Positions 1-53,399 of a stretch of DNA of 64,000 nt are shown piece after piece. A program made the position numbers and the translations under genes. Every line of letters starts with the position of its first letter. The first letter of the stretch is position 1. The stretch covers positions 29,140,001 to 29,204,000 of the forward strand of contig NC_135893.1 in assembly GCF_964194155.1 (NCBI RefSeq). Reading direction: 5' to 3'. The notes beneath the pieces are model-generated. The model saw only the letters and a program-made list of their open reading frames with translations, was not told the DNA's origin and ran no database searches. The DNA comes from Cetorhinus maximus (taxonomy: Eukaryota).

Positions 1-318
1 GCAATTTTAGAATTTGAAATCAGGTAAAATTAACACTAAAACAGTGGATAAAAAATAACCATGAAGCTACAATCATTGGATTGTCATAAAAACCCAATTG
101 GTTCACTAATGCCCTTTAGGAAGGAAATAGTTTGTCCTCTAACTGCCCTCTGGAGTGGCCCAGCAAAGGGGTCAGTTATATCACACCATTGCAAAAAATA
201 ACAAGGATTTGTAGAGGTTCAGGATAAAGGCCCATAACCAGCTTCCCAGGACAACCAGGGACAGGCAATAAATGCCAACCTTGCCAGTGATGCCCACATC
301 CCAAGAATGAATAATTTT
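1..318 (+). mobile_element. SINE made of the 5' UTR and 3' tail of the tRNA-headed LINE family (head cut off by window edge)
   Basis: ttgtcataaaaacccaattggttcactaatgccctttagg matches the LINE 5' UTR at about 54670-54710. The tail gcaataaatgcc...gatgcccacatcccaagaatgaat matches the LINE 3' end at 12790-12840. Confidence 0.75.
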
Positions 319-689
319 AAAAACTGAATGAGTCCAATTATGACTACTGTCTGATGTTAGCTGTGACATAAAGCAGCTTATCAGCTTATCAGACCTCATC
401 ACAATGAGTGTTCATTCAGTCCATTTTTGGAGAGATTGAAGAATGAATGACATGCATGACATGATTCAGCTCCCAATGGGATGTTACTGTTACAACCCCA
501 ATGCTAGTGGATATAGGGCAGTGTGAGCCAACTCCAATAGAGATCAGACACTCTTAGCACTGATAGGAGTGACTGATGCCACTGAACTCCGGAAAGTGCC
601 CATAGGAGGCCAGATTTTGTAACGTATGAGAAAACAAGTCTAAATTTGCTTGGATAATAGTAGCGGTTCTGGCTGAGGCACACGGGGAG

Positions 690-1080
690 CTGAACAGTGT
701 TGCAGAGGTCACAGTATGCTATCGGAAGTGAGGTTGGCAGCGCAGGTCTGGGTTAAGCTGGATGCCAAGGTTTCACCTGAGTGACTGGCAGGGAGGGGGA
801 TGCAGTGAGTAGCAAGGGAGCAGAGTTTATGATCCTGTCTTCTTAATGTTCAGCTGGAGGGTACAATGACACATCCAGGATGTGAAGTTGGACAGGTCGC
901 CTGAAAGCACTGAGGTAGCGGTGGGGGAAAGGGAGGCTGATCCCATGATGGTGGATGACGGGCCAATTCAGATGAGGAAGAGGTGTAGACTATGGATAGA
1001 TATTTTAGGCAACTCTGGAGATGACTGTGTTGGGGGTCAGGGGGACATGGGGAGGGGAATGCAGTGACTGGGGTGTGAGG
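690..1080 (-). mobile_element. Old L2 LINE fragment (RT region)
   Basis: Minus strand reads LSNFTSWMCHCTLQLNIKKT, like the L2 motif LSDI.SWM..N.LQLN..KT, with a degenerate VPQGS-region segment upstream. Confidence 0.55.
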
Positions 1081-1440
1081 GAGTCCAACTCAAGTTTTGG
1101 CTGCCTGACAAGAAGAGGAACTGGGGAATGTGGAGTTAGCTACTCCTAACCTGGAAGCTGAAAGTAGGTGACAGAGGTTCCTGGAAGTGAAATAGAGTTC
1201 GTCATCCAAAGCCCCATTGGCTGACCTCAAAATGATTTGGAAAGTCATGAACCTCACACCTTGAATCCCTATTGGCTGCAGCACTGGGTGATTGGGCCAT
1301 TGCGGAAAGTGCATTAGCAATGTTTGGATAGGGAAGAGAGGAGCTAGTGACCATCAGAGTCCACAGAGCTGGACAAATCGAACAAAAGGTGCCATGGTAA
1401 TGCAGTAACTCTAGTGACCTCATATTCTTGGAATCCTTAC

Positions 1441-1567
1441 TCGAAAGATGTAACAAAATATTTTTGGATCTTTTCATTCGGAAAGGGCTTCCCATTGTCT
1501 CCTGGAAGACCTTCTATTTCCCATCCATCTCCATCATTATTCGTGAGTTCCCAGAAGGTGAATTCCT
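1441..1567 (-). CDS. F-box/FBA-domain protein (FBXO2/FBXO6/FBXO44 family), coding exon 2
   Basis: Acceptor ccatttttgacag|AG at 1568/1567 and donor GA|gtaagg at 1441/1440. Translates (E)EFTFWELTNNDGDGWEIEGLPGDNGKPFPNEKIQKYFVTSF, matching the FBA-domain start of FBXO2/6/44 (GGDxWxVExLPG...KKYFVTS). Its phase matches the preceding exon. Confidence 0.93.
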
Positions 1568-1971
1568 CTGTCAAAAATGGAAAAGATGAATTGTTACTCC
1601 AAACATCACTTGGATAATTTACCCACAACCTGTGATATTTGAAGTGTTTAAATGTGTTCCCAACGCGCTTATCTATTTCTTTTTAAGGATATGCAGTTAT
1701 CTTTCACCTGATTTCTTTCCCAACCCACCTTTCGAATTCAGCTCCTCTCCTGCATTTGTGCTGGATGTGGGTTCCAGGTCTTTGGCACCTCACTCAATGA
1801 CCGTCCTGTCAGCAAGGGTGGCGAGACTCAAGGGGCAGATAGGCTCAGGATGTGTGGCAAAGCCAAAGCTCCACTTTGACCTCAACCAACATCCACAGGT
1901 AAGCATTTCCAGCAGAGGACGTTGATAATGATCAGTGTCGGGAATCCTGCTTCATTTTGCTCATTTTTCTC

Positions 1972-2715
1972 AGCCATGGCTCAGTGAGAAGCATTCCCAC
2001 CTCTCAGTCAGAAGGCTATAGGTTTGAATTCCACTGCAGACACTTAGAGCCCATAACCTAAGCTGTCAATCTGGGAGTGCCACACTGTCAGAGGTGCCAA
2101 CTTTTAGAGGAGACGTTATACCGAGGCCCATTTTCACTCTCAGGGTTAAAGGATGGGACAACGGCTTTGGGTGGAGTGGGTGCCTCTGATGGGCTCACGA
2201 GAGGTCTGCCCCACCCTTGCCTGACATCAGCTAGTGTAGCTAAAGCTGCTGGGCTTCCTGCATGGCATGGACTTCCCCCGCCACGGGTAATCTAATGCGG
2301 GATGAGGCCCTCAAGTGGCTATAAATTGGCCACTTCAGGGCCTCAATAAGTCTGAGGCAGACGAGCAGCCCAGCGCCCTCCCCTGTAAAATTTCAGACAG
2401 GTTGGGATGGGCGAAAAGATGGTGGGAAGGCTACCCACTGGATTTTACATGCCCCCCCCCTCCCACATTCAAACCCACAGACAGGGCAGTGTAAAATCTA
2501 GCCCTCGATACCCTGACCAATATTTATCCCTCAACCAACATCATTGATTCAGATAATCTGGTCATGTATCTCACTAATGTCTTTGGGGGCTTGCTGTGCA
2601 CAATTTTGCTGCCGTGTTTTCTATGTTACACCTCAAAAGTACTTAGTTGCATGTAAAGTAATTATTGATGTTCTGAGGTCATGAAAGGTGCTATATAAAT
2701 GCAAGTTCTTTATTT
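1972..2715 (+). mobile_element. DeuSINE-type SINE (SacSINE1/AmnSINE1-like), interrupted by a MITE remnant at about 2150-2505
   Basis: tRNA-like head (tggctcagtg...ggtttgaattcc), Deu domain (cactgtcagaggtgcc...gagacgttataccgaggccc) and tail aaaggtgctatataaatgcaag. The insert ends in the TIR-like gtaaaatctagccc. Confidence 0.8.
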
Positions 2716-2779
2716 CTTTTTTTTCATCCCTGCAATAGGTGTGGGGTGCTGCTGAGGCCAACTTTAGCACGCTGAATAG

Positions 2780-3200
2780 ATTGGATAGCTTAGTATAAGT
2801 AAGGGACCAATTTGGGGGCTCATCTGACTGAGGTGATAAAATGGTCCAAGGATTCAAGAGGGTTGATGCACAGAAATGGCTTCCTCTGGTGAGGAAATCA
2901 AGAGCGAGAGGACTCAATCTTAAAATTAGAGCTAGATCATTTAAGAGGGAAACCAAGAAGCACCTATCCACACAAAGGGTCATGTAATTCTGGAATTCTC
3001 AAATGGCTGTGGTTGTTGGGACAATTGGACTTTTCAATGAAGAGATTAAAAGATTGATAGATTTTTGGTGCATAATAGATCAAAGGATCTTCAGCTACAG
3101 AGGGCAATTGGAGTTGGGATATAGAACAACCATGATCTAATTGAATAGCGGAGCAGGCTAGAGGGGCTGAATGACCTATTCCTGTTTCTAATTTTCCCAT
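2780..3200 (+). mobile_element. CR1 LINE 3' fragment
   Basis: Degenerate RT C-terminus plus CR1 3' UTR (catgatctaattgaatagcggagcaggctagaggggctgaatgacctattcctg). Confidence 0.8.
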
Positions 3201-3309
3201 GGATCCCTTTACATTTCAATGCCATGATCATTCAACGCACACACTGACTTAAAGAGAAAACAAGCATGCTTCAGTCTAACATGCATAACCATATATTTCT
3301 GGAACAAAC

Positions 3310-3559
3310 CTTCTCCACATGCGTTCCTGATTAGGTTCTTTTTCGCAGGTTTACAAAAATAAAAAGCATCCCAGTCTTCTGGCTTTATATCCTGATTTTG
3401 CTTTGGCAAACCTTCATCTTGAAGTTGTAGGTTTAGTCCATCCACAAGCTCTTTCCACTGTTGACAGACTAGTCTGCAGATCAAAACCAACTCTTTTGGA
3501 GGGACGTAGGACAGAATTTTGAGCAACACTTGTTCAGGTAAAACCTCTATGGCAGCCAT
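3310..3559 (-). CDS. F-box/FBA-domain protein (FBXO2/FBXO6/FBXO44 family), first coding exon
   Basis: MAAIEVLPEQVLLKILSYVPPKELVLICRLVCQQWKELVD is an F-box, followed by DW.AFYF...KKNLIRNACGE. Phase-1 donor G|gtttgt at 3310/3309 and acceptor ttctttgcag at 3596. An in-frame TGA two codons before the ATG supports this start and an upstream non-coding exon. The paralogue cannot be assigned by eye. Confidence 0.93.
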
Positions 3560-3714
3560 ATTTCAAAATGTCTTCCGGTCACAATTCTGTTTCAACTGCA
3601 AAGAATATTTCGAAGAGATTGATTCAGATTTTGCTAAAAGGTGGACATTGTGGCAAAAGACATCAGCAGAACTGCTTGGCTTAACATGTTTGGTTTAAAC
3701 AATAGGGGCAGAAT

Positions 3715-4284: not shown

Positions 4285-7278
4285 TTTTTTTTTTTTTGAT
4301 GCATTCACGGGATGTGGGCTTCTCTGGCTGGTCCAGCATTTATTGCCCATCCCTAATTGCCCTTGAGAAGATGATGGTGAACTACCTTCTTGAACCACTG
4401 CAGTCCATGTGGTGTAGGTACACCCACAATGCTGTTAGGAAGGGAGTTCCAGGATTTTGACCCAGCGACAGTGAAGGGACAGCGATATATTTCCAAGTTA
4501 GGATGGTGAGTGTCTTGGAGGGGAACTTCCAGATGGTGGTTTTCCCATCTATCTGCTGCCCTTGTCCTTCTAGATGGTAGTGGTCGTGGGTTTGGAAGGT
4601 GCTGTCTAAGGAGCCTTGGTGAATTCCTGCAGTGCATCTTGTAGATGGTACACACTGCTGCTACTGTGCATCAGTGGTGGAGGGAGTGAATGTTTGTGGA
4701 TGTGGTGCCTATCAAGCAGACTGCTTTGACCTGGACAGTGTCCAGCTTCTTCAGTGTTGTAGGAGCTGCACTCATCCAGGCAAGTGGGGAGTATTCCATC
4801 ACACTCCAGCTTGTACCTTGTCGATGGTGGACAGGCTTTGGGAAGTCAGGAGGCGAGTTACTCGTCGCACGATTCCTAGCCTCTGACCTGCTCTTGTAGC
4901 TACAGTATTTATATGGCTAGTCCAGTTCAGTTTCTGGTTAATGGTAACCCCCAGGATGTTGATAGTGGGAGATTCAGTGACAGTAATGCCATTGAACATC
5001 AAGGGGCGATGGTTGGATTCTGTCTTATTGGCGATGGTCATTGCCTGGCACTTGTGTGGCGCAAATGTTACTTGCCACTTGTCAGCCCAAGCCTGGATAT
5101 TATCCAGGTCTTGCTGCATTTGGCCGAGGACTGCTTCAGTATCTGAGGAGTCGTGAATGGTGCTGAACATTGCAATCATCAGCGAACATCCCCACTTCTG
5201 ACCTTATGATGGAAGGAAGGTCATTGAAGAAGCAGCTGAAGATGGCTGGGCCAAGGACACTACCCTGAGGAACTCCTGCAGGAATGCCCTGGAGCTGAGA
5301 TGACTGACTTCCAATAACCACAACCATCTTCCTTTGTGCTAGGTATGACCCCAACCATTGGAGAGTTTTCCCCCTGATTCCCATTAACTCCAGTTTTGCT
5401 AGGGCTTCTTGATGCCACATTCGGTCAAATGCTGCCTTGATGTCAAGGGCAGTCACTCTCACCTCATCTTGGGATTTCAGCTCTTTTGTCCATATTTGAA
5501 CCAAGGCTGTAATGAAGTCAGGAGCTGAGTGGCCCTGGCGGAACCCAAACTGGGCATCAGTGAGCAGGTTATTGCCAAGCAAGTGCCACTTGATAGCCCT
5601 GTTGATGACCCCTTTCATTACTTTACTGAGGATCGAGAGCAGACTGATGGGGCGGTAATTGGCTGGGTTGGATTTGTCCTGCTTTTCGTGTACAGGATAT
5701 ACCTGGGCATTTTTCCACATAGCTGGGTAGATGCCAGTGTTGTAGCTGTACTGGAACAGCTTGGCTAGGGGTGTGGCAAGTTCTGGAGCACAAGTCTTCA
5801 GTACTATTGCCAGAATTTTGTCAGGGCCCATAGTGTTTGCAGTATCCAGTGCCTTCAGCCGTTTCTTGATATCACGTGGAGTGAATCGAATTGGCTGAAG
5901 ACTGGCATCTGTGGTGCTGGGGACCTCCGGAGGAGGCCGAGATGGATCATCCACTCGGCACTACTGACTGAAGATTGTTGTGAATACTTCAGCCTTATCT
6001 TTTGTACTGCTGTGCTGAGCTCCTCCATCATCAAGGATGGGGATATTTATGGAGCCAGTGAGTTGCTTGACTGTCCATCGCCATTCATGACTGGATGTAG
6101 CAGTACTGCAGATCTTAAATTTGATCTGTTGGTTGTGGGATTGCTTAGCTCAGTCTGTCACTTGCTGCTTATGCTGTTTGGCATGCAAGTAGTCCTGTAT
6201 TATAGCTTCACCAGGTTGAACCAGGGTTGATCCCCTGGCTTGATGGTAATGGTAGAGTGGGGGATATGCCGGGCCATGAGGTTACAGATTGTGTTCGAGT
6301 ACAATTCTGCTGCTGATGATGACCCACAGCGCCTCATGGATGCCCAGTCTTGAGTTGCTAGATATGTTCGAAATTTATCCCATTTAGCACGGTGGTAATG
6401 CCACACAACACGATGGAGGGTATCCTCATTGTGAAGGAGGGACTTCGTCTCCACAATGATTGTGCAGTGGTCATGGACAAATACATCTGTGGCAGGCAGG
6501 TTGGTGAGAATCAGGTCAAGTATGTTTTTCCCTCTCTACTTGCCGCAGACCCAGTCTAGCAGCTATGTGCTTTAGGACTTGGCCAGCTCGGTCTGTAATG
6601 GTGATATCGAGCCACCCTTGGTGATGGACATTGAAGTCCCCCACCCAGAGAACATTCTGCACCCTTGCCACCCTCAATGCTTCCTCCAAGTGGTGTTCAA
6701 CATGCAGGAGTACTGATTCATCAGCTGTGGGAGGGCAGTATGTGGTAATCAGCAGGAGGTTTCATTGCCCATGTTTGACCTGAGCCATGCGACTTCATGG
6801 GGCCCAAGTCGATGTTGAGGATTCCCACTGTGCTGCCACCTCTGATGGGCCGACAGGATATACCCAGGGATGGTGATGGTGGTGTCTGGGACATTATCCA
6901 TAATGTATGATTCCGTGAGGATGACTATGTATGTCAGGCTGTTGCTTGACTAGTCTGTGAAATAGCTCTCCCAATTTTGGCACCAGCCTCCAGATGTTAT
7001 TAAGGAGGACTTTGCAGGGTCGATAGGGCTGTGATTGCCATTGTCGTTTCCAGTGCCTAGGTCGATGCTGGGTGGTCTGTCCAGCCTCATTCCTTTTTTG
7101 TGTCTTTGTAGCAGTTTGCTAAACCATTTCAGAGTCAACCACATCACTGTGGTTCCAGATTTTTTTTTTATTGGATTCAAAATCCACCATCTGCTATGGT
7201 GGGATTCGAACCCAGGTCCTCAGAGCATTACCCTGGATTACTAATCCAGCGACAATACCACTACGCCATCGCCTCCCC
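4285..7278 (-). mobile_element. Full-length decayed non-LTR retrotransposon (CR1/L2 group, APE endonuclease + RT) with tRNA-derived 5' head, copy 1
   Basis: APE start (NIWRLVPKLGEL...IVILTESY), RT motifs (NYRPISLL, QFGFR, ALDIKAAFDR, GVPQGSVLGP, FADD) and a poly(A) tail at 4285-4298. A box TGGCGTAGTGG (7268-7258) and B box GGTTCGAATCC (7212-7202). It splits a CR1 fragment (about 4230-4284 and 7279-7440). Confidence 0.9.
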
Positions 7279-7859: not shown

Positions 7860-8100
7860 GTTTTTTCTTTAGGTTATTTTGTTCTGGGGAAGTGGGCATC
7901 ACTGGTGAGACTGGCATTACTGCCCATTCTTAGGAGCCTTGAGAAGATGGTGGTGAGCCTTCTCCTTGATGCATAGTCTGCGATGTTAGGAATGAAATTC
8001 CGGGATATTTACCTAGCAACAATACAGAATAGTGAGCGCGAAGGAATGATGATATTTATCTAAGTCAGGATGATGGGTGACTTGGGGATTCACCTGGATA
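7860..8100 (-). mobile_element. Old 3' fragment of the tRNA-headed LINE family
   Basis: Similar to 4310-4530 (cttgagaagatggtggtgagc, aagtcaggatgatgggtgacttgg). Confidence 0.65.
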
Positions 8101-9246: not shown

Positions 9247-11899
9247 TAATGATGCAGATCATCGTAACACGTCACAGGGTAATATTGTAGTGAACTATTA
9301 TATTGGAGCACAACATAATGTAATAGGACCAAATATGAGGAGGTGCTGGATGGATTGACTCTGTGTGTCATTGCTGCTTGCTCCCGTTGTTGAAGGTGAT
9401 GTCGTTCCCATGATATTGTTCTTTTTGCCCTTACTTTATATTATATTAATACATTTTAATAGATTACCATACAATTTTTACAGTACCAAACTTATTTCAT
9501 ATGATAATGCATTATGTATAGTTTGATATGACATGATACCACACTGTATTGCGCACTCTGTTTCCTAAATTGATACTTGAACCTTCATCAAATGTAATTC
9601 TTTAAAAACTGGTCTTGCTTGCCATCGAATTTACAGCACAAAAACAGGCGATCGAGTCCGACTCCGTGCTGCTGATTATGCTCCACGTGAGCCTCCTCCC
9701 ACCCTACTTCCTCTCACCCCATCACCATGTCTGTCTAAGTCTAGTGTAAAGTGACCCTGCATTTGCAGTGAGAAAATGGTAAGAGTATAAAAAGCGCTAT
9801 CCTCAGGGTATCATAGTTTCAACATTTAAGCTGGGGTTGTTAAAAGGCCAGGCCCGTAGAGGCATCTGAGATGCTATACCACTGGCAGGGCTCCAGTCCA
9901 ATCTGCATTGCAGTGTTTAACACAGTCCAATTCATAAATCCATGGCATGACTTACATCAGTTCACTGCTATCTTTTCTATTTCTGGAGGCACTGTCTGTA
10001 GAAAACCTTCAGCCTTTTATTTCAAACTGGAAAGCATAAAGCAACAAAATAAACGCTTAATTGTACCTCATCTCAAATCCGGCAAAAACTTATTTTTTGA
10101 GCCAATTCTGTCACTTCCTCACCTCTGTAAGTAAAACCCAAGCTCACCATCACTAAATCGCCACATCTTTACTCCTCCCCTCTCATATTCTTTTCAATCT
10201 CCGTGGTGTCCTGCACTACAACACTCAGCTCATCAGCTCACCTTCCCAATTTAAAGAAGATAAATTGCCCTTGCTTTTAATTACATCGCCATGTTGTTGA
10301 TCATGTCATCTCTTGTATTCTGCTACTTACGGCCTCTTGTTGTGGAGACTCACTCTTGTCCTCTGAGCCAGCTGAACCCTCAGTCTGTGCAACGATCACA
10401 CTCAACAGCACTGAGCTGCACATGCACTGTGAAACATCAATAACCTGGAGCTCAGCATAGTCAGCAACCTTAATACATGGAAAGCAAATTAAAGACCAGC
10501 AGTGTATGAGCTGCCCAGTGTGGTAATGGAATTGGAGTTCAGTCTATTTTAATGCCTGTTGTTCATCCTTTGCACCTATTTTTAGAGGCTTTATTGCTGG
10601 AACAACACTGCACAACCGTAACACGTAATTTCATTACTTTAACCCACTGAAAGTGAAATGTACACTAATCTGTCATTTCTAGGCATTGTACTTTTAGAGA
10701 TTATTTATTCCATTTCTTTCTTGCAAAGGTTTTATTGACTTTTGTATTGAGAATTCAGATTGTTTGTTCTCTTGGGGTTTTTTTTGGTTTGGTTTTGTGT
10801 GATTCTCGCACTTGTGAAGTTGGGATGGTGGGTGGGGGGAGGCTGGAAATGGGGCAATTCCTATTTTAGATACCCCAGGGGGAATCTTCTGACTGGTGCA
10901 ACTGGCTTTGGTTACAGTCTTCCAGCAGCGATGGCTACAAAGGCACCTGCAATAGGGCCACCAGGGACGCTGTAAAAGGGAGGGAAAGGAAGGAGGGGTT
11001 AAAAAGAAGAGAAAAGGAGCAAGTAGATTGTGATGCTCACGCTGTACTGATAGTGACTTTAATTTCACAGCCATGCATATGGGGCTGTGATTTTCCCACT
11101 GACTCCTATCATGAAGTTGAAAGCACGGGGCCATGCGGACTATAACCGTAGAGCTAGCGTGAAGCAAAACCATGCTTGTTGCCACAATTACACCGTCAAT
11201 AGTGCCTGAATCTGAAGTCAGGACTCAGCCTAACACTGGTAAAAAACTGAGTGAGGCTTCCCTCAGGGCATTAACCCCCCTCCCGCCGATTCACTCTCCA
11301 CTCGTTCAGCTTCACATCAATGACAAACCGAGAGAATAGAATCCTAGAATGGTTACAAAACAGAAGGAGGCCATTCAGCCCATTGTTTGTTTATGTCAGT
11401 TCTGTGCGAGAGGAATTCATCTAGTCCCACTCCCTCGCCTTCCAACCCCCTGTCCATAGCCCTGCAAATTTTTCCCCTTTGGATAAAACCTGGATCCACC
11501 TCTTGTGTTTGTGATAATCTTCTGGGATGGGGATATTGTGATGCACAAGGCATTATTGTTGTGTGGGACAGGCTTGATGGAACTGTGGGTCTTTTCCTGC
11601 TCCTCATTGTTTGTAATACATTGTGGTGCAGTTGAGGATCACCACCTGGCCTGTTTTGCACCAGACAATGTACTTTGGGTGGTTTGGGACATCGAGAGAA
11701 CTCTTCACTATTCTCCCTTGGTAGCCATGGGCTGTTTAAGACTCATCTCAGTTTAATGTCTCACTCTAAGTGTTGGGAGTCATAAGTTATAAAAACTTGC
11801 AAATACTGGAGACAGAGGATTAATTTACATTATCCTCTTTGAGAGAAAATGCCCTGAATGAGCTATCTGCTACTGAGCCATCCAATGGGATTCCAATGT

Positions 11900-12846
11900 C
11901 CTAGACCCAACCATCCTCAGCTGCTTCTTCAATGACTTTCCTTCCAACATAAGTGGGGATGTTCGCTGATGATTGCACAATGTTCAGTATCATTCGCAAC
12001 TCCTCAGACACTGAAGCAGTCCATGTCCAATGCAGTAAAAGACCTGAACAATATCCAGGCTTGGGCTGACAAATAGCAAATAACTTCAGTGTCACACAAG
12101 TGCCAGGCAATGACCATCCCCAACAACAGAGAATCTAACCATCGCCCCTTGACATTCAATGCCATTATCATCGCTGAAGCCCCCTCTATCAACATTCTGG
12201 AGGTTGACAGAAACTGAACTGGACTAGCCATATAAATACTCTGACTACAAGAGAAGCTCAGAGGCTGGGAACCCTGCAGCGAGTAACTCGCCCCCTGACT
12301 CCCCAAAGCCTGTCCACCATCTACAAGGCACAAGTCAGGAGTGTGATGGAATTCTCTCCACTTGCCTGGATGAGTGCAGCTCCAATAACACTCAAGAAGC
12401 TTGACACCATCCATGGCAAAGCAGCCCACTTGATTGGACCCCTTCCACAAACATTCACTCCCTCCACCACCAACACACAGTAGCAGCAGTGTGTACCATC
12501 TACAAGATGCACTGCAGCAACTCACCAAAGCTCCTTAGACAACACCTTCCAAACCCACAACTGCTATCATCTAGAAGGACAAGGGCAGCAGCCACATGGG
12601 AACACCACAACCTGGAAGTTCCCCTCCAAGCCACTCACCATCCTGACTTGGAAATATGTTCCTTCACTGCCACTGGGTCAAAATCCTGGAACTCCCTCCC
12701 TAACAGCGCTGTGGGTGTATCTGCAACACATGGACTACAGCAGTTCAAGAAGGCAGCTCACCACCACCTTCTCAAGAGCAATTAGGGATGGGCAATAAAT
12801 GCTGGCCCAGCCAGTGAAATCCACATCCCATCAATGAATAAAAAAA
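11900..12846 (+). mobile_element. 3' fragment of the tRNA-headed LINE family
   Basis: GMFADDCTMFS...YKAQVRSVME...KSWNSLP, ending ccacatcccatcaatgaataaaaaaa. Confidence 0.85.
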
Positions 12847-13289
12847 GCTAGCAGACCACCAGAGGCATCACGGGTAAACTGGCTCCTGATATTCCCATCA
12901 GATGAACTTTCCAGCCCAAATCACTGGAGAGCCACCAGGAACAGGATCCCTGGTGGATTTTTCTGCTCTAGTAGCCCAGGCACGCTGAGGTTGTTTGAAA
13001 TGGCCTCCAAACATATACCCACTGCACCCCAACTCACCCCACCCCCCTCCCCCCACCCCCAATCTGGCCAGCAGATCAGTCAATTCAGCAGAGGTTAGGG
13101 ATTGAGCTTAGACCTTCCAGAGATGGTGCCTTAGTATTGAACCAGTTTGAATCATTGAAGGACCAAGCAGATACATCAGAAACAAAACTGAACCCAAGGT
13201 CGAGGATTTGCTCTCTGAGCTGCAGCAAGAAGCCAATCCACTAGGTGGGGCTGCACACCAGGAAATTGGGTAATTCTACTTATTAATAA

Positions 13290-13555
13290 AAAGGCTTGCA
13301 TTTATATAGCACCTTTCATGAACTGAGGATATCCCTCACAGCCTACAAAGCACTTCTCACGTGTAGTCACTGTTGTAATACAGGAAACGTGGCAGCCATT
13401 TTGTGCACAGCAAGCTCCCATAAACAGCAATGTGATAATCACCAGATAATCTGATTTAGATGTTGGTTGAGGGATAAATATTGGCCAGGATACCAGGGAG
13501 AATCCTCCTGCTCTCCTTCGAATGGTACCATGGGGTCTATTATGTCCACCCCAGT
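13290..13555 (-). mobile_element. DeuSINE 3' half
   Basis: cttgcatttatatagcacctttc...gttggttgagggataaatattggccagg. Confidence 0.8.
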
Positions 13556-14269: not shown

Positions 14270-14700
14270 CTAATACTACAGTATTCCCTAAGGACTGCCT
14301 TTTAATAATGTAACGCAGCCTCAGTACTGACTCTCTTGACAATGTGGCACTTCCTCAGTACTGCCCCTCTGACAGTGCAACACTGCTTAGTTCTGCCCCT
14401 TCAACAGTGCAGCACTTATCAGTGCTACTTCAGTGACCTTTCAGCATTCCCTTGAATATTGCAGCATTCCTTCTTTACTGCCCCTCCAACAGTGCAGTGC
14501 TCCCTCAGTACTGCCCCTCTGACTCTGCAGCGCTCTCTCACTACTGCCCCTTTGACAGTGCAGCATTCCCTCAGTTCTGCCCCTCTGACTCTGCAGCACT
14601 CCCTCACTACTGCCCCTTTGATAGTGCAGCACTCCCTCAGTACTGCCCCTCTGACTCTGCAGTGCTCCCTCACTACTGTCCCTTTGATAGTGCAGCACTC
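14270..14700. repeat. 33-bp minisatellite derived from the DeuSINE body, with a 66-bp higher-order dimer
   Basis: Units agtgcagcactccctcagtactgcccctctgac and tctgcagcactccctcactactgcccctttga(c/t) alternate from 14491 to 14688. More degenerate units lie upstream. Confidence 0.85.
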
Positions 14701-15134
14701 CATTTGAATGACAGCTTTGAACAAGTTAAAGTCTTAGCTGCGCCTCAAACCCATAGCAATCTAACCTAAATGAGCCCCGATGGAGACACTTCCCCATTGG
14801 GATTCATGCTAATTCTCATATTTGGTAGACATTAGCATCTTTGTTAAGTAGACAGCTTGAGGGAAAAGGCCCGAAAAAAACATTCGAAATGTTCAGTGAA
14901 TGACAGATGAGTTTCTTCACACCATAAATATTCAAAATGCTTTCAGTAAAAATAATCCTTCAACATGAACCCTTAGGGAAATCTTCAGATGTGATTAAAA
15001 CCTTGGCGAACCCTTTGTTGCAGTGAGTATGCAAAGAAAATTTGAACAGCATAACCTCCCTGTTTAAAGGTCAAATCCAACTATTGTCATTTCACTCACA
15101 CTGAGATTTACCTTAGCCCCAAAGTATTGGCTCA

Positions 15135-16055
15135 TGGGAACATAGAAACAAAGGAAAACAAAAGCAGGAGTAGGTCATTCAGCCCTTTGAGCCTGCTCTG
15201 CCATTCAGTATGATCATGGCTGATCCACCATCTCAACGCTATACTCACGCTCTCTCCCCATACCCCTTGATACCTTTAGAGCCTAAAAATCTATCTATTT
15301 CCTTCTTAATTATATTTAGTGACTTGGCCTCCACAGCCTTCTGTGGTAAAGAATTCCATAGGTTCACCATCCCCTGAGTGAAGAAGTTTTTCCTCATCTC
15401 AGTCCTAAATGGTCTACCCCTTAACCTGAGACTGTGACCCCTTGTTCTAGATCCCCCCAGCCAGAGGAAACATCATCCCTGCATCCAGTCTGTCCATCCC
15501 TGTCAGAATTTTATACGTTTCAATGATGTCCCCTCTTATCCTTCTAAACTCCAGTGAATACAGGCCCAGTCGGCTCAATCTCTCCTCATACGACAATCCT
15601 GCCATCCCAGGAATCAGCCTGGTGAACCTTCACTGGTATATCCTTTCTTAGTTAAGGAGACCAAAACTGCACACAATACTCCAGGTGTGGTCTCGCCAAG
15701 GCCCTGTGCAGCTGCAGTAAGACATCCTTGCTCCTGTACCCAAGTCCTCTTCCAATGAAGGCCAACATACCATTTGCCTTCTTAACTGCGTGCTGCACCT
15801 GCATGCTTGCTTTCAGTGATTAGTGTACATGGACACCCAGGTCTCTTTGTACATCAATATTTCCCAATCTATCACCATTTAAATTAACACTCTGCCATTC
15901 TGTTTTTCCTACCAAAGTGGATAACTTCACACTCATCCACATAATACTGCATCTGCCATGTATTTGCCCACTCAACCTGTCTAAATTGCCTTGAAGCCTC
16001 TTAACACTCTTCTCACCACTCACATGCCCACCTAGTTTTGTGTCATCAGCATACA
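15135..16055 (-). mobile_element. CR1 LINE 3' portion
   Basis: ORF 15820..16065 ISMYADDTKLGG...QRDLGVHVH, then the CR1 C-terminus and 3' UTR. Confidence 0.9.
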
Positions 16056-16384: not shown

Positions 16385-16750
16385 CTTCCTGCATTGCGGG
16401 CGTCACCAATAAAGCCAACATTTATCGCCCATCCCAAGTTGCCCTTTTACAACTGTCTAGCGTGCTAGATTACTTCAGAGGGCAGGTAATAGTCAACCAG
16501 GTTGGTGTTGGACTAGAGTCACCTATCGGCCAGCCTGGCTAAGGATGCCAGGTTTCCTTTCTTAAAGGTTATTAGCAAATCAGTTGGGTTTTTTTGAAAA
16601 CCCCACAGCTTCATTTACAAAGAACAACTTTTTGTTTCCCAGATTTTTCTAAACAGAATTTGAAACTCTCAAAGCGCCACAGCAGGACTTGAACTCAAGT
16701 TGTACAAATTGCTAGTCGAGTAACATAGCCACTATACTACCGTGTGCCCA
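16385..16750 (-). mobile_element. Complete SINE (tRNA head + LINE 5' UTR + LINE tail)
   Basis: Minus strand begins gggcacacggtagtatagtggctatgttactcgactagcaa...gagttcaagtcc, has the same middle as the LINE 5' UTR, and ends aagggcaacttgggatgggcgataaatgttggc. Confidence 0.75.
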
Positions 16751-19261: not shown

Positions 19262-20030
19262 TTTATTCATTCATTGGATGTGGGTGTCACTGCAAGGCCC
19301 ACATTTATTGCCCATCCCTAAGTGTCCTTGAGAAGGTGGTGGTGAGCTGCCTCCTTGAACCGCTGCTGTCCATGTGGTGTAGGTACACCCATAGTGCTGT
19401 TAGAGAGGGAGTTCCAGAATTTTGATCCAGCGACAGTCAAGGAGTGGTAATGTGGTTCCAAGGTGTGTGACTTGGATGGAAACTTGCAGGTGGTGGTGTT
19501 TGTGGTGGTGTTTCCATGCGCCTACTGTCCTTGTTCTTCTAAATGGTAGAGGTCGCAGGTTTGGAAGGTGCTGTCAAAGCGGCCTTGGTGAGTTGCTGCA
19601 ATGTGTGTTATAGATGGCGCACATTGGTGCCACTGTGCATCGGTGGTGGAGAAGTGCATGTTTAAGATGGTGGATGGGGTGCCAATCAAGTAGACTTGCT
19701 TTGTCCCGAATGGTGTCAAGCTTCTTGAGTGTTTTTGGAGCTGTACTCGTTTAGGCAAGTGGAGAGTATTCCGTCACACTCCTGATTTGTGCCTTGTAGA
19801 TGGTGAACAGGCTTTGGGAAGTCAGGAGGTGAATTACTTGCTGCAGAATTCCTTGCCTCCGACCTGCTCTTACAGACTTAGTATTTATATAGCTGGTCCA
19901 GTTCAGTTGTAGCTCCCAAGATGTTGATGGTGGGGGATTCAGCAATGGGAATGCCATTGAATGTCAATGGATGATGGTTAGATTCTCTCATGTTGGAGAA
20001 GGTCATTGCCCGACACTTGTGTGGCGCTAT
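19262..20030 (-). mobile_element. 3' fragment of the tRNA-headed LINE family, inserted in a minus-strand DeuSINE (about 19170-19260 and 20040-20285)
   Basis: APHKCRAMTFSN...AESPTINILG and IYKAQIRSVTEYSPLA. DeuSINE halves lie on both sides. Confidence 0.85.
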
Positions 20031-20419: not shown

Positions 20420-22800
20420 AATACTGGTTGGGAACACAGGTGGGCCCATAGCAATGAGGTAGGATTAATTAATAACCTCATAGTGAAGGCACCCCTAGGT
20501 GACAGCAATCATACTATGAATTTTACATTCAGTTTGAGGGAGAGAAGAGTGGGTCTAAGACTAATATTTTAAACTTAAAGAAGGGCAATTATGAGGGCAT
20601 GAAAGCAGAGCTAGCTAAAATGAACTGGCAATTTAGATTAAGGGATTGGTCAACAGAGATACAGTGAAAGACATTTAAGGGGATATTTCAGAATGCACAG
20701 AATAGATACATTCCAACAAGAAGGAAAAATTCCAAGGGGAGGACTCACCATCCATGGTTAACTAAAAAAAGTTAAACATAGTATAAAGCTTAAAGAAAAA
20801 GCATATAATTGCACATGGATGGGTGGCAGGTCAGAAGACCGGACAGAATATTAAACAAAAACACCAAAGAATGACTTAAAGATTAATAAGGAGAGAAAAA
20901 TTAGAGAACAAGAGAAAGCTAGCTAGAAATACAAAGAGAGATAGTAAGAGTTTCTATAGATATTTTAAAAAGCAATGAGTTAACAAAGTGAGTGTTGGTC
21001 CTATAGAAAGTGAGTCTGGAGAATTGATAATGGAAAAAAAGGAGATGGCAGATGAATTGAACAGGAATTTTGCAGCAGTCTTCACTATAGAGAATACAAG
21101 TAACATCCCAGAACTAGCTGTAAATCAGGAAATAGAAGGGAGGGAGGAAATCCAAAAAAATTCCAATCATCAGGGAAGTGGTACTGAGAAAATTGTTGGA
21201 GATACGGGCTGACAAGTTGTCGTGTCCTGAAGAACTTCATCCTAGAATCTTAAAAGAAGTGCCTAGTGAGATAGTTGATGCGTTATTTTTAATTTTCCAA
21301 AATTCCTAGATTTGGGGAAGGTTCTATGAGATTGGAAAATAGCAAATATAACTCTGTTATTCAAAAAGGCGGTGGGGGGAGACAGAAAGCTGGAAACTAC
21401 AGGACAGTTAGGTTAACATCTGTCATAGGGAAGTTAGGAGCTATTATTAAAGATGTGATACCGGGCCACTTAGAAAAAATCAAGATAATCAGGCAGAGTC
21501 AACATGGTTTTATGAAAGGGAAATCATGTTTAACCAATTTATTGGAGTTTTTTAAAGAAATAATGTGCTATGGATAAAGGGGGACTGGTGGATGTACTGT
21601 ACTTAAATTTCCAGAAGGCATTTGATAAGGTGCCACATCAAAGGTTATTGTGGAAAATAAAAGCTCATGGTGTAGGGGCTAACATATTGGCATGGATAGA
21701 AGATTGGCTAGCTAACAGGAAACAGAGAGTAGGCATAAATGGGTCATTTTCTGGTTGGCAAGATGTAACAAGTGGTGTGCCACAGGGATCATTGCTGGGG
21801 CCTCAACTTTTTACAATTTATATAAATGACTTGGATGAAGGGACTGAAGGTATGGTTGCCAAATTTGCTGATGACACAAAGATAGGTAGGGAAGTAAGTT
21901 GTGAAGATGATATAAGGAGGCTACAAAAAGATATAGATAGGTCAAGTGAGTGGGCTAAGATCTGGCAAATGGAGTATAATGTCGGCAAATGTGAAATTGT
22001 CCATTTTGGCAGGAAGAATAAAAAAGCAGTATATTATCTAAATGGTGAGAGATTGCATAGCTCTGAGATTCGGAGGGATCTGGGTGTCCTAGTGCATGAA
22101 TCAAAAAAAGACTAGTACGCAGGTACAGCAAGTAATTAGGAAAGCTAATAGAATGTTATCATTTTTTGCGAGGGGAATTGAATACAAAAGTAGGGAGGTT
22201 ATGCTTCAGTTGTAAAGGGCATTAGTGAGGCCATGTTTGGAGCACTATGTATAGTATTAGTCACCTTATTTAAGGAAGGATGTAAATGCGTTGGAAGCAG
22301 TTCAGAGAAGGTTTACTAGACAAATACCTGGAATGGGTGGGCTGTCATATGAGGAAAGGTTGGACAGACTAGGCTTGTATCTGCTGGTGTTTAGAAAGTA
22401 AGAGGCGATTTGATTGAAACATAAGATCCTGAGGGGTCTTGACAGGGTGGATGTGGAGAGGATGTTTCCTCCTGTGGGAGAATCTAGAACTCGGGGGTCA
22501 CTGTTTAAAAATAAGGGGTTGCCCACTTAAGACAGAATGAGGAGAAATTCTTTCTCTCAGAGGGTCGTGAGTCTTTGGAACTCCCTTCTTCAAAAGACGG
22601 TGGAAGCAGAGTCTTTGGATATATTTAAGGCAGAGGTAGATAGATTCCTGATAGGCAAGGGGGTGAAAGGTTTTTGAGGAGAGGCAGGAATGTGGAGTTG
22701 AGGTTACAATCAGGTCAGCCATGACCTTATTGAATGGCGGAGCAGGCTTGAGGGGCCGAGTGGCCTACTCCTGCTCCTAATTCGTTTGTTTGTTCCTATG
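20420..22800 (+). mobile_element. CR1 LINE, 5'-truncated and decayed ORF2
   Basis: GNYRTVRLTSV, SQHGFMKGKSCLTNLLEFF, FQKAFDKVPH, SGVPQGSLLGP, FADDTK, and 3' UTR ggcctactcctgctcct. Confidence 0.95.
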
Positions 22801-22924
22801 TATTTATGTTTGTATATATGCATGTATAGCCTATGATTTATGATCCTTTAGGTTTCAGGCCTGCAGTTTCCTGGGCTGCACAGCCAACAAGCCATCACTC
22901 CTAATGGAATCGACCCTACAATCC

Positions 22925-24079: not shown

Positions 24080-24445
24080 CAGTAGCAACAGTGTGTACCA
24101 TCTACATCTGCAGGAATTCACCAAGGCTCCTTAGACAGCACCTTCCAAACCCACAACCACTAGAAGGACAAGGGCAGCAGATAGATGGAAACACCACCAC
24201 CTAGAGGTTCCCCTCCAAGTCATTCACCATCCTAACTTGGAACTATATTGCCGTTCCTTCACTGTCGCTGGGTCAAAATCCTGGAACTCCCTTCCTTACA
24301 GCACTGTGGGTGTACCTATACCACATGGACTGCAGCGGTTCAAGAAGGCAGCTCATCACCACCTTCTCAAGGGCAACTAGGTATGGGAAACAAATGCTGG
24401 CCCAGCCAGCGAAGACCAATGAACATCCCGTGAATAAAAAAAAAT
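24080..24445 (+). mobile_element. 3' fragment of the tRNA-headed LINE family
   Basis: Near match to 12480-12845, ending catcccgtgaataaaaaaaaa. Confidence 0.85.
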
Positions 24446-24830: not shown

Positions 24831-26244
24831 CGCCCAAATCATGGTCTTGTACTGATAGAAAAGATAAAACCGCTGCGACCTGTCAAGGGTGGATAATATT
24901 CTTCCGATCAGGTGTACAGAGTGTGAAAATTGCAGGAAGAGGATGCGAGGCCTTCATTGCACAGACTGACCCAACCGGTCTTCACAGTGTAAGATTAACA
25001 CTGAACTCTATTAAGACCTTTTTTTGTAGTATAGGGAAGTAGGAAAATGTAGTAATAGGACATAATATGAATTGATGTCAAGGTAGAAGGAAGATGAGAA
25101 ATAACGGCAAGCTTTTAGAAAGACACTTCCTGCAGCTGAAAGCTAAACGCCTTTAGCCCAAAGCTGCTCGTGTAAACTAAAAGGCTGGAATGCTGTTATA
25201 TATTCATCGACTTGTTTTATATTTATAAATCTTACAGCAATGCAGAGGTGACACTAAAAGTGTGCAACAGGTTTAATTGCAGGAGTTTTAAAATGTCTCT
25301 GCAGTCACAAAATGCCTACACTCATGCTGACAGCTCAGCTTCTGGTAGCTTTTGTGATGTCTGTTTACTTTGTTCTGAGTCCACACCCAGGTTTAACCAA
25401 TCAAACACAGTGAGCATAGATCAGTTACCACACTCACATAATCAAACACAGAACAATAGAACAATTGAAATGCAGGGGCCTAATTGTTTGAGATAAGGAA
25501 CCACAGGATGGTCTCGGTGTAGTTATGTAAGAAAGAACTTGCATCTATATAGCACCTTTCAATGCCTCAGGACATCCCAAAGTGCTTTACTGCCAGTGAG
25601 GTACTTTTGAAGTGTAGCCACTGCTCTAATAAATGAAACAAAATCTAATTGGCACAAGGGAATAGTTATCTTTAATCATCATAAGTCATAACTATTTCTT
25701 CCACTGTGATTCTCTGATTAGAAGAGATGCTGAAGAACAGAACGGTCACCATCTTGAATCTCATATCCAATTCAACAATTGCACTGAATTGTTTGCTTTC
25801 TCCTCCTGAAGGTCCTACCAGGGATTAATTAGCCAGAACTAGGTGGCAGAAGACAATCATTGTATACTCTCAGGTAGGGAAGGACTGAGGTGGGCACACT
25901 GAGCATAAACATACTTTGCAGCAGTGTCAGTGGAGCTGTTGGCACTGCCAGTTCATCTCTGCATAATTGGTTGTGAAAGTTAGCTGCAATCTCCTGCTAT
26001 TAATTGCAAGGGTTCAATAATTGAGGAGTTCAATGGCTACTTTTAGAACGTGGATGGAGTTATAGCTGCAGGATCATTGTCTCCCTAGTGAAACATAGGT
26101 GGCAAAAGACTATCTCCTCACACATGCATCTTGGTGCTTGGGCTAGGGAAGGTTACCTCAGGTATAAATGTATTGTCAACTTTAGATACTCTTCTCCTTT
26201 ATCTAAACTCAGAAAATATAGATGTGTCCTGTAATTTAAAAATA

Positions 26245-26465
26245 AAATCATTCTTGGGACATGTGTGTCACTGGCGAGGCCAACATTTATTGCCCATCCC
26301 AAATTGCCCTTGAGAAGATGGTGGTGAGCCACTGCAGTCCATGTGGTGTAGGTACACCCACAGTGCTGTTAAGGAGGGGATTCTAGGATTTTGACCCAGC
26401 GACAGTGAAGGAACAGCGATATAGTCCCAAGTCAGGATGGTGAGTGGGCTTGGAGGGGAACTCAA
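26245..26465 (-). mobile_element. 3' fragment of the tRNA-headed LINE family
   Basis: Near match to 4310-4530. Confidence 0.8.
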
Positions 26466-27977: not shown

Positions 27978-28626
27978 GGAGGGTGGTGGTGGCAGGGTAG
28001 CATTGTTACTGGACCGGAATAATGCTTCAGGGGCATGAGCTCAAATCTCACCACGGCAGCTGGAAGGAATTTAAATCTATTTTAATCAAATAAATCAATT
28101 ATAAAATGCTAATCTGAGCAACGATAATCATGAAACTACCAGGTTGTCATAAAAACCCATCTGGTTCGCTAATGTCCCTTTAGGAAAATAAATCTGCTGT
28201 CCACCTTGATCTGGCCTACATGTGACTCCAGACCCACTTAAATTGGCCTAGATGGCCACTCAATTCTAAGTGGCTCATCGCCACCTTCTCAAGGGCAATT
28301 AGGGATGGGTAATAAATGCTGGCCTAGACAGTGACACTCACATCCCAATATTGTAAGGTTATATATTGTCTTATGAAGAGGTCTGGAGGCTTGTATGGTT
28401 GAACAATAACTGTTTATTAATAACACATAACTCCATTAATATACACAGGATACAGTCCTGACTATGGGCTATCTTCATGTCAACTTCTACCAGACTCACT
28501 GCTACACTCTACTACTCCTATGTGACTGTCCACATCATAATGTGGGTGGTGCTGTTTCCCCAGTCCCACATTAACCCTTACCATCCCGCACACCCTAATA
28601 TTACACCCAAGAATGAACTTTTAAAA
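27978..28626 (+). mobile_element. SINE (tRNA head + LINE 5' UTR + LINE tail), interrupted by a solo LTR
   Basis: Head tggcagggtagcattgttactgga...gagctcaaatctcaccac, middle aaaaacccatctggttcgctaatgtccctttagg, tail ccaccttctcaagggcaattagggatggg...catcccaa|gaatgaa. Confidence 0.8.
28349..28605 (-). mobile_element. Short solo LTR (Gypsy-like)
   Basis: 5-bp TSD CCCAA (28344-28348, 28606-28610) and right end ...ttaca. Shares the gggttaa(t/c)gtgggactg motif with 53400-53648. Confidence 0.75.
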
Positions 28627-28979: not shown

Positions 28980-29430
28980 AAAGAAAGACTTGCATTTATA
29001 TAGCTTCGTTCACAACTTCAGGACATCCCAAAGCATTTTACTGTCAATAAAGAACTTTTGAAGTGTAGTCACTGTTGTAATGTTGGAAATACGGCAGCCA
29101 ATTGGCACATAGCATCACCCCACAAAAAGCAATGAAATAATGACAAGTTAACCTGTTTTAATGATAATGGCTGAGAGATAAATATTGGTCAGGACCCTGG
29201 GGAGAACCCTCATGCTCTTCTTTGAAATAATGCCATCTTTTATATCCACAAAACAGACAGGGTCTCGGTTTAGCTTTACATACAAATGACAGCATCTCTG
29301 ACAGTGCCGCACTCCCTCAGTACTGCACTGGAGCATCAGCCTAGATTCTGTGCTCAAGTCTCTGGAGGGGGCGCTTGAGCCCACAAGCTTTTGAGTCAGA
29401 AGCAAGAATGCAGCCAACTGAGCCCCAGCC
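28980..29430 (-). mobile_element. Complete DeuSINE
   Basis: Head ggctcagttggctgcattcttgc...ggctcaagcgcc, Deu domain and tail ctatataaatgcaagtctttctt. Confidence 0.85.
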
Positions 29431-31009
29431 GAGTCTCCTTGAATAACTTAGTCATTTCTTTTCACTCCTCCTCAAAAAGGAATTTCAGAACTTTTACACT
29501 GAGTGTTCAGCCATCTGGGGGCACAGCTGATGAGGTGGAGGATGTTGCAATAGACAGTCAAAGCTAGTGATCTACTGTCTAACCACTCAGCAGGAAAACA
29601 TTCACTGAGCATTGGTAAGGACTTCCTCCTCCAGATGGCAGGATAATATCTGTCACAATCAGTGATTTATTCACAGACAGAGCTTACATATTAATTTCTA
29701 GCATTTACTTCAGTCCGAGCTGCAATACAGTGTAGTGAAGGAGCAATATACAATTCATTTTAGCTTCCTATTTGTTTTGGGAAGATGAATATTTTAGCAG
29801 CAGTAAATGGAACTTTTTCCTACTTCAGGTGCCCAGTGTCAGGATCAAGCACTTCTGGGTCACAAGGTTAGAGGTGAAGGAAAATTCCCTTCTGCCCCCA
29901 CTTAGCGCCTTAGGCCTAATTTCAGAAGCCTAGAAATGGAGCTACAAACAATCTTGGAAATTTAGGATCAAATCAGGGGTAACATTAGTGGGTGGGGGTG
30001 GGGGAGAGAATTTCCATTTTTAGTCACTCATGCATGTTTCTTCAGGTGTTTGCCTGCTATTCTCGGCATGAGGTTGGGAGAATCTGCCTGTAGAAATTGC
30101 AGTTTTCAATTCTTTCTGAATTGAAAAACCCTGGTGAAAAGCCAAGGTCCACACTGAGGGGGAACACCAAGGCTAACAATGTAAGAGAGAAGGCACAAAC
30201 AGTCAAAAGGTAGCTGACATCAAGCTTGGAGCTGTGCCATTTGCCATAAGAGTGCCAGCAGCTAACATGCACCATAGGGCTGGCAGTGCCAGTGTCAAAA
30301 TGGGCAGCTGTGCTCTCAAGTTCACTACCTCAGCCCTCCTTTCAGGAACACTGCAGTGCTGTCCTGTGAGGGACAGGAGAATGCCCTGAAGTGACAAACG
30401 GGGCCGTACTAATGCCACCTCATGCAGCAGCAGAGCCGCATCACAGTCATCAAAATTCCAGTATTTCATTTATGAAATACACTTGACAAAAGGAACACAT
30501 CGGGAATTTCCTTAGGGATTCTCCTGAACCCTTCTTGAGGGACTGATGGCAAGGCTTGCAGGCTTCTATAACCTTGACAGCTATGCTGGGAGGAGTATAA
30601 CTCCTGGTAGGGCCAGGCAGGTGGAAAGATTGGAGCTAGACACTGCACCAGGTAGGGAGATGGGTGGTGAATCAGGTTAATGACCATATCAAACGCTGCA
30701 GTTAGGGAGATAGTCCAGAGACAAGGGAGTCTGTTGCAGACTCGCAAATATAAAAATCAACCCTGGGGAACTCCTGGATTGAGGCAAGCAGATATGCCAA
30801 AGGAGTCTTGCTCTGGGCAGACAGCAATGGAAGAAATGGTTGTCTTGTGTGGTGCTAGGCAGAGGCGACTCTAACTGATCAGCTACAGTGGAAGGCCAGC
30901 AGAAACACAAATAGATGTGCAAACCCCAAAGAGACCTTGTTTACCTTGATCTCTGCTCCCATGTAGGACAATCATTGGACAAAGATCAAGTGAATGTTGA
31001 CAGAAATAA

Positions 31010-32009: not shown

Positions 32010-32592
32010 ATCAGCCATTCTGAGGTTGTAGGTTGTGAGTTCGTCAAATTCTCAGGCATGAGGATGTAATGTAAGCTGACACTTCTGTGTGGGACTGAGG
32101 GAATGCTGTGCTGTCAGTGGTGATGTTATTAAAGGCCTCAGCTGCTGGCTTGTTCATGTTAGCTGTGGCTGTTAGCATTCTCACCTCTGACAGGTCATGA
32201 GCGCCAGCCCCATATTCCAGGAGGCTTAAGCACACAAACCAAGACTGACGCTCCAGTGTAACACAAAGGGAGTGCTGCGCTGTTGGGGGTGTCGTCTTTC
32301 AGATGAGAAGTTAAACCAAAGCCTGTCAGCTCTCTCAAGTGAATGTAGATCTTGTGGCTCTACTCAAAGACAGCAGGGGAGTACTGCTGCTGTCCTGGCT
32401 AATATTTATAAACACCTAAAACAGATTATCTGGCCGTTATCACATTGTTGTTCATAGGAGCTTGCAGTAAACAGTTTGGCTGCCGTGTTTCATTACAACT
32501 GTGTATAAAATTCAAAATACTTCATTGATTGAAAGGTGCTTTGGAAGTTCCAGAGGTCGTGAAAGGCCCTAAAGAAATACAAGTCTTCTTCC
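32010..32592 (+). mobile_element. DeuSINE (partial head followed by a near-complete copy)
   Basis: Two successive head segments, then gtgctgcgctgttgggggtgtcgtctttcagatgagaagttaaacc and tail gtcgtgaaaggccctaaagaaatacaagtc. Confidence 0.75.
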
Positions 32593-35460: not shown

Positions 35461-35479
35461 TTGGCCGAGGTGGTAAGGA

Positions 35480-35785
35480 AGAAAGACTTGCATTTAATCA
35501 TGACCAGCAGACGTCTCAAAGAGCTTTTCAGCCAATGAAGTACTTGTGAAATGTGGTCACTGTTGTAAGGTAGGAAAATACAGCAGCCAATCTGTGCACA
35601 GCAAGCTCCCACAAACAGCAATGTGAGAATGGCTAGATCATCTGTTTCTGTGTTGTTGATTGAGGGATAGATATTGGCCAGGATACCGGAGACAACTCCC
35701 TCTTCTTCTTCGAAATCATCTCATGGGATCAGTTACATCCACCTAAGAGGGCAGGGCCTCAGTTTAATGTCTTATCCAAAAGAGG
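35480..35785 (-). mobile_element. DeuSINE 3' portion
   Basis: agaaagacttgcattt...gcaagctcccacaaacagcaatg...gagggatagatattggccagg. Confidence 0.8.
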
Positions 35786-53397: not shown

Positions 53398-53399
53398 AA

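Follow-up and report, generated by a model that had tools for sequence, protein, structure and literature searches.

According to the textbook division, LINEs are coding elements transcribed by RNA polymerase II (Pol II), SINEs are non-coding elements transcribed by Pol III, and Pol III elements do not exceed about 1 kb (PMC10886601, PMC5786205). Zenon LINEs that lack ORF1 and carry a poly(A) tail have been reported from five elasmobranchs by Stuart et al. 2026 (PMC13343379). These elements (CarCar_Zenon-1, RhiTyp_Zenon-1, ScyCan_Zenon-1, SquAca_Zenon-1/2/3 and HypSab_Zenon-1) are >84% alike and are absent from repeat repositories (PMC13343379). The term 'CR1-Zenon like LINE' has been used in a whale shark preprint (10.1101/443036). 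In Lepidoptera, a Zenon LINE gave rise to Persaeus, a short element composed of the 5′ and 3′ ends of the LINE, without tRNA homology or a Pol III promoter (PMC6740152). Bov-tA and SINE2-1_ACar consist of a tRNA head with its boxes, a body, and a LINE tail; they are non-coding, and their head was added to an already deleted LINE (PMC5786205, PMC4494074). RTE-1_DAn and related elements, which belong to a different clade, are autonomous LINEs said to contain a tRNA-like sequence, in one sentence that makes no claim of Pol III transcription (Kojima 2018, PMC5786205). The T+ SINEs B2, Dip, and Ves are short, non-coding mammalian elements with AATAAA, a terminator, and an A tail, and their T-runs lengthen with tail age (PMC8466645). 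Other shark SINEs are treated in PMC5499810.

We analysed a stretch of 64,000 nucleotides (the window; assembly GCF_964194155.1, contig NC_135893.1, positions 29,140,001–29,204,000) of the 4.0-Gb genome of Cetorhinus maximus, which contains two copies of a LINE with a tRNA-derived head.

7278 to 4285, minus: copy 1 of the LINE, first bases GGGGAGG
7192–7278, minus: tRNA-Thr(AGU)-derived head, the 5′ end of the element (ARAGORN; sharp family boundary; alignment to the host tRNA-Thr genes L301 and L306)
7258–7268, minus: A box of copy 1, TGGCGTAGTGG (from the sequence)
7202–7212, minus: B box of copy 1, GGTTCGAATCC (from the sequence; identical to the host tRNA-Thr T-arm)
7091–7191, minus: non-coding body remnant and A-rich linker, aligning to positions 1–122 of the family majority and resuming at 317
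7088–7090, minus: conserved ATG, out of frame with APE-RT (family nt 348), kept in 27 of 33 copies and seen in published consensuses
4353–7013, minus: decayed APE endonuclease-RT frame with stops, frameshifts, and small deletions
4298–4352, minus: 3′ UTR with AATAAA (4344–4339) and a predicted stem-loop, common to the SINE tail
4285–4297, minus: poly(A) tail of 13 A
54514–57224, plus: copy 2, with head, full body, endonuclease (EN), and RT, 85% identical to majority positions 2–2796

A sequence-only reading of the window had described copy 1 as a tRNA-Thr head with A and B boxes joined to an APE endonuclease, an RT, and poly(A), and this description holds. ARAGORN made a single tRNA call in the window, tRNA-Thr(agt) at 7192–7272 inside the copy 1 head, and the RT matched PF00078 in a profile search (E 2e-27); Rfam gave zero matches to the window at E up to 1. 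The short 5′ UTR that had been ascribed to copy 1 is a deletion in this copy and not a family trait: much of the family body is deleted there, and the family UTR is about 345 nt. An exon of an F-box protein gene lies at 3209–3562 on the same strand (PF12937/PF00646, E 5e-10), and copy 1 is located about 720 bases upstream of it.

Copy 2 had been said to carry the same head on the same body. The two copies are indeed 76% identical in the head (over 121 nt) and 75–84% identical in the coding body, and stops and frameshifts are present in both. The A box of copy 2 (54523–54533) is degenerate, and its B box lies at 54580–54590; it has lost about 470 nt from the 3′ part of its frame and UTR, with the terminal bases and the A tail retained. 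Each copy was also thought to split an older repeat whose halves rejoin. This was strongly supported for copy 2, because its joined flanks align across the junction to another repeat family, with 14 spanning matches (best E 3e-33). For copy 1, the joined flanks match CR1 loci weakly, with five spanning matches at about 60% identity (best E 1e-6). The flanks rejoin around the whole unit and the junction is constant genome-wide, as expected from the proposal that head and body inserted as one unit. The SINE-sized repeat split by copy 2 has other window copies at 2509–2721, 13285–13550, 25523–25630, 28981–29442, 32216–32587, 35509–35766, and 48489–48696. Target-site duplications were not detected: flank matches beside the ends of 34 full-length copies were not above those of 170 mismatched pairs, the sole exception being one insertion into a tandem repeat.

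A genome pattern search gave 26 matches, and two of the 12 that were fetched (L301 and L306) are ordinary tRNA-Thr(AGU) genes. The head agrees with these genes in the A box, in the anticodon loop, and along the entire T-arm, which substantiates its suggested resemblance to tRNA-Thr(AGU); compared with the host tRNA-Thr, an extra 20 nt is inserted in the variable region. Besides the head of copy 1, ARAGORN called a tRNA in the family majority sequence and in 5 of 50 long headed loci. Heads of this LINE are therefore accepted by tRNA scanners, and counts of tRNA-Thr genes in sharks can be too high as a result. Shortening of the head has recurred (L296, L298, L299, and L305), in both LINE and SINE forms; the insertion of about 20 nt is lost, tRNA-like spacing is restored, and L299 is called as a tRNA.

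Family members were collected as sets of 30 loci per query, kept from the best 40 candidates, and these sets are biased to well-preserved copies. The 60 loci from two 5′ queries share a sharp boundary at GGGGAGG. A query consisting of endonuclease DNA only was used to avoid selecting for the head; among its 30 loci, which include the query copy and one duplicated pair, 14 extend into the head and the remainder are staggered truncations. No alternative conserved upstream sequence was found among these 30 loci, and the only shared upstream sequence (two loci) is ordinary CR1. The possibility of a longer headless 5′ end with an ORF1 was examined with the same query, and no alternative 5′ end or ORF1 was found. 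ORF1 is absent, with about 345 nt before the frame and no other upstream sequence. Four of the 16 truncated copies in this set (L072, L074, L077, and L081) begin at family nt 340–345, in the A-run immediately before the conserved out-of-frame ATG, and these starts mark either a site prone to truncation or a second 5′ end that has no head.

When 50 headed loci were fetched at 4.5 kb, 34 ran collinear to the tail. A column majority was taken from 31 tail-reaching loci without large insertions and both window copies (n=33). It is 3,283 nt long, and the median divergence of the copies is 7.4%. The family layout is a tRNA-Thr(AGU)-derived head, a body of about 230 nt, a single APE-RT frame, and poly(A), in 3.3 kb. 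The majority frame is stop-free over 975 codons (nt 302 to 3226) and contains PF00078 and a weak PF14529. Exact 16-mer counts, which are lower bounds since the copies are decayed, were 5,664 for the LINE 5′ junction (control 224), 61,489 for the LINE 3′ end (control 0), and 7,527 and 8,328 for two SINE junctions (control 1 each). The LINE counts suggest that about 1 in 10 LINE copies reaches the head. The genome consensus and junction count, which the sequence-only reading had named as a check, therefore agree with a headed family. The 30 loci obtained with a query from the body alone were split evenly, 15 of LINE form and 15 of SINE form.

Headed copies might instead be one-off chimeras similar to U6/L1, or the product of a SINE that landed before the LINE, and by motif count the SINE with the same head and body does outnumber the headed LINE. 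However, U6/L1-type chimeras have a variable junction and are not amplified as a unit, whereas the shark junction is constant: it is identical in thousands of copies and in the published consensuses of five species. Moreover, no SINE tail is present between head and frame, and the flanks rejoin around the whole unit. The constant junction refutes this explanation, to which we give almost no credence. The family and its head-to-tail joint are also present in contigs from four sequencing runs of four organisms. The RT query matched Mobula birostris protein P0098 with 78% identity over 44% of the query, and a protein search with the EN piece gave two matches.

Other copies in the window, together with the CR1 fragments used as a T-run control, are as follows.

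11897–12839, plus: 5′-truncated copy of the Zenon-type LINE, 89% identical to the majority
19265–20027, minus: 5′-truncated, more diverged copy of the Zenon-type LINE, 81%
24080–24438, plus: 3′ fragment of the Zenon-type LINE
26248–26462, minus: 3′ fragment of the Zenon-type LINE
33028–33149, plus: 3′ fragment of the Zenon-type LINE
7887–8085, minus: diverged 3′ fragments of the Zenon-type LINE
28020–28346, plus: diverged SINE form, with head remnant, body, and LINE tail
16414–16593, minus: diverged SINE form, 5′-truncated, with body and LINE tail
71–312, plus: diverged SINE-form fragment, with body and tail
15130–16051, 21268–22806, 33389–37000, and 52103–53403: canonical CR1 fragments (T-run control)

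A sister family behind the copy at 19265–20027 was considered and rejected, because its 19 best other matches are 85–95% identical to the same majority. The window also contains a little-decayed RT element (42470–44747, plus) with a 421-codon open stretch, a weak PF00078 match, and six TTTT on its sense strand, which looks Penelope-like in its C-terminal motifs. It lies in a GC-rich block (about 37800–47300) with a Myb/SANT-like domain at 46565–46894 (PF13837); this block is probably a decayed PIF/Harbinger-type transposon, with a putative transposase, interrupted by the RT element. At 14276–14769, units of about 33 bases are repeated in a degenerate tandem array.

Two family motifs match Zenon rows of the PMC13343379 supplement. 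Judged from these matches, the family is the elasmobranch Zenon LINE (CR1 group), with its clade placement taken from that paper. The impression that the element had no prior description is thus corrected: the family has been published, with a consensus in the supplement, and its head is unremarked there. Compared by eye over its first ~400 letters, CarCar_Zenon-1 is nearly identical to the majority, and the lengths are 3,288 characters and 3,283 nt. The elasmobranch Zenons and the window LINE alike have no ORF1 and a poly(A) tail; because the lack of ORF1 is a general Zenon trait, it is not a result of the head. Over the ~400 leading letters of each published consensus, as compared by eye, the head is carried by all seven elasmobranch Zenons, and their boxes vary almost only at degenerate positions while the inter-box spacer changes. 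The B box of one stingray consensus is interrupted by a one-base gap. The two hagfish rows and one coelacanth row have no such head in their first ~400 letters, where their 5′ ends may be incomplete.

In PMC13343379, 'tRNA', 'promoter', and 'Pol III' occur 0 times in the main text and 'tRNA' 0 times in the supplement; in the parts of that paper available to us, we saw no account of the head, of the depletion of terminators, of the missing AUG, or of the derived SINEs. The Zenon family is therefore known, and its tRNA head appears to have gone unremarked. In the literature covered, mostly outside subscription journals and repeat databases, we found no description of a tRNA-headed shark LINE or of a Pol III-transcribed LINE.

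Selection on the frame was assessed with variants outside CpG sites in the 33 copies, from loci chosen for the head. Singleton variants (507 synonymous vs 1,478 other) have a ratio to expectation of 1.12, which is neutral. Variants common to at least 5 of the 33 copies comprise 56 synonymous vs 50 non-synonymous or stop changes, with a ratio of 0.34 (Fisher P 7e-9). The APE-RT frame is under purifying selection, and this selection acted in headed source elements, because the tested loci were chosen for carrying the head. The earlier suggestion of a once-autonomous LINE is borne out by this result.

The same result bears on the proposal that the headed RNA is only a Pol III template, a giant SINE-like passenger whose protein is supplied in trans by headless or read-through copies that Pol II transcribes. 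This proposal would account for the lack of an in-frame AUG ahead of the endonuclease and for the clustering of 5′ ends at nt 340–345, and uncapped RNA is in general poorly translated. However, purifying selection on the frame of headed copies requires the protein to benefit its own lineage, and the headless copies have no upstream sequence of their own in common. We consider such a passenger improbable.

How the frame would be translated is a separate question. Its first in-frame Met is codon 290, downstream of the endonuclease. The ATG at nt 348 follows an A-rich leader and is out of frame. In 18 of the 33 copies, 91 nt separate it from the start of the endonuclease, and inspection of the published stingray consensus by eye shows an identical offset. 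Since the leader length varies between species, coding starts at or after nt 348. No selection was found in nt 302–452, before the endonuclease, in either frame (small numbers), and a selected short upstream frame was rejected for lack of this signal. A stop-restart at the TAG/GTG overlap near nt 453 was also rejected, because 9 of the 33 copies share a stop-removing change that is silent in the EN frame; a start at this overlap would moreover skip the first EN motif. We infer an AUG-less start, by non-AUG initiation or a frame change. R2, with uncapped, AUG-independent translation, offers a parallel.

The shortest working Pol III terminators are TTTT and TVTTT (PMC8466645). The majority sense strand (3,283 nt) contains 0 TTTT, 0 TVTTT, and 0 TTTVT. 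Within the frame alone, the absence of TTTT is not significant (P about 0.1; expected number about 2). The frame has 4 TTT runs, whereas its synonymous shuffles give 12.7 ± 2.5 (P 0.001) or, when the following G is fixed to hold the CpG effect, 10.1 (P 0.0007); A, C, and G runs match expectation in the synonymous shuffle. At fourfold sites, T is found before T in 4 of 54 cases and before A or C in 58 of 285 (P 0.02). None of the 88 Leu codons in the majority frame is TTA, and Phe, at 1.8%, is below that of all 58 full-length homologues, with 10 of 12 conserved Phe positions retained. TTTT occurs 0.47 times per kb in natural copies of the LINE and 4.85 times per kb in those of CR1 from the same genome (9 TTTT runs in 1,576 nt of this control). 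The element is also poor in T (20%, vs 27% in the CR1 control), which is a point against the Pol III reading.

Relatives from metagenomes (80 loci) yielded 34 long frames, 32 of which have 2.3–16.7 TTTT per kb. The other two, L275 and L290, are GC-rich, with no TTTT, low TT, and no visible tRNA head; the sense strand of each whole contig (3.7–4.7 kb) is TTTT-free, and their 5′ ends may be missing. A further relative, L244, has a significant TTT deficit (P 0.003) yet contains 12 TTTT. No head similarity beyond chance was found in the 80 loci, where relaxed ARAGORN gave scattered calls. Among the published consensuses, read over their first ~400 letters, TTTT is present in none of the seven elasmobranch Zenons and in all three hagfish and coelacanth Zenons.

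The 3′ end is the only place where T-runs gather. T4–T6 directly precedes the A tail in 16 of 83 tails, about 45 nt downstream of AATAAA; in controls, such runs occurred in 1 of 52 cases after the A tail and in none of 62 cases at an AAT-A5 site inside the element. These tail T-runs may be poly(A) decay. About 1 in 5 shark LINE tails thus resembles the tails of T+ SINEs, but the shark LINE majority itself is without a terminator, in contrast to those short elements.

The head could be real and fixed and the element still be transcribed by Pol II, with the head and body serving as a Pol II promoter or 5′ UTR, or through read-through. The poverty in U would then reflect base composition or the avoidance of splicing and polyadenylation signals. 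A coding RNA of 3.3 kb with AATAAA near its end suits Pol II, the body of about 230 nt is well conserved across species and could be a promoter, the headless T-poor LINEs L275 and L290 are likewise without TTTT, and the general view treats LINEs as Pol II units (PMC5786205, PMC10886601). Pol III processivity, which is said to confine such elements to about 1 kb (Kojima 2024, PMC10886601), also counts against transcription by Pol III. However, the boxes are conserved over sharks and a ray while the spacer changes, and the element begins at the position expected of a Pol III start. Composition-matched shuffles do not remove the TTT deficit, which is the deepest among 36 frames tested (ratio 0.31), and the body contains many short out-of-frame AUGs, which are poor for cap-dependent scanning. 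We regard transcription by Pol II as rather unlikely.

The SINE forms are LINE nt 1–292 or 1–315 joined to the last ~67 nt, about 360–380 nt in total. In the part common to both, only a handful of positions distinguish the SINE majority from the LINE; the 315 form appears the more diverged of the two, and a few SINE copies (70–76%) have diverged further than most LINE heads. They are probably deletion products of the headed LINE, as judged from these alignments. Because the LINE has no tail between head and frame, deletion from a headed LINE is simpler than the joining of a LINE to a finished SINE exactly at the border of body and tail. The single copies L010, L022, L020, and L307 have other large internal deletions that bring the 5′ part next to the 3′ end, and internal deletions are therefore common in the family. 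As in Persaeus, the short element is made from the 5′ and 3′ ends of a LINE; unlike Persaeus, the shark product is a textbook tRNA SINE. The short forms fit the plan of Bov-tA and SINE2-1_ACar, but in the shark the head is on the whole coding LINE. Among the features that define tRNA-derived SINEs (SINE2), the LINE has a head with boxes, and only its ~360–380-nt derivatives are short and non-coding. By eye, the shark body resembles neither the Meta nor the UCON3 domain (PMC7245038 supplement) nor the Deu rows shown there. A MetaSINE identity, prompted by a remark on tRNA-Thr (PMC4824008), was rejected on the printed Meta domain.

One conserved 5′ end with both boxes, a selected 975-codon frame, a terminator-free sense strand, poly(A), and end-joined SINEs occur together in this family. 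Transcription of the headed LINE by Pol III is the best reading, and we lean towards it, because tRNA-derived promoter motifs are combined with an absence of T-run terminators. An ancestral elasmobranch Zenon would have exchanged its original 5′ end for the head of a tRNA or a SINE, probably via template switching. TFIIIC and Pol III would then have transcribed the element from base 1 across 3.3 kb, selection would have purged T-runs, and transcription would have stopped at a T-run at or just beyond the 3′ end. The uncapped RNA would have been translated without an in-frame AUG, by non-AUG initiation or by a frame change from the nt 348 ATG, which is the weakest step. The protein would have copied its own RNA by target-primed reverse transcription, giving mostly 5′-truncated copies, and internal deletions that retained the head and the last ~67 nt would have produced ready-made SINEs. 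Taken as a whole, this would be an autonomous coding retrotransposon that switched to Pol III before the shark-ray split, with a terminator-free 3.3-kb mRNA, translation free of a cap and of an in-frame AUG, and SINEs formed in one step by deletion, reversing the usual SINE route. We regard the chances of this full account as evenly balanced.

The tRNA-headed structure is certainly a family trait. Production of a protein-coding element by Pol III would be unusual, and if it is true, a Pol III-made LINE would break the polymerase split between LINEs and SINEs. The family would then provide a natural long Pol III mRNA with cap-independent, AUG-less translation in a vertebrate, and a direct route from LINE to SINE with both partners still present in the genome.
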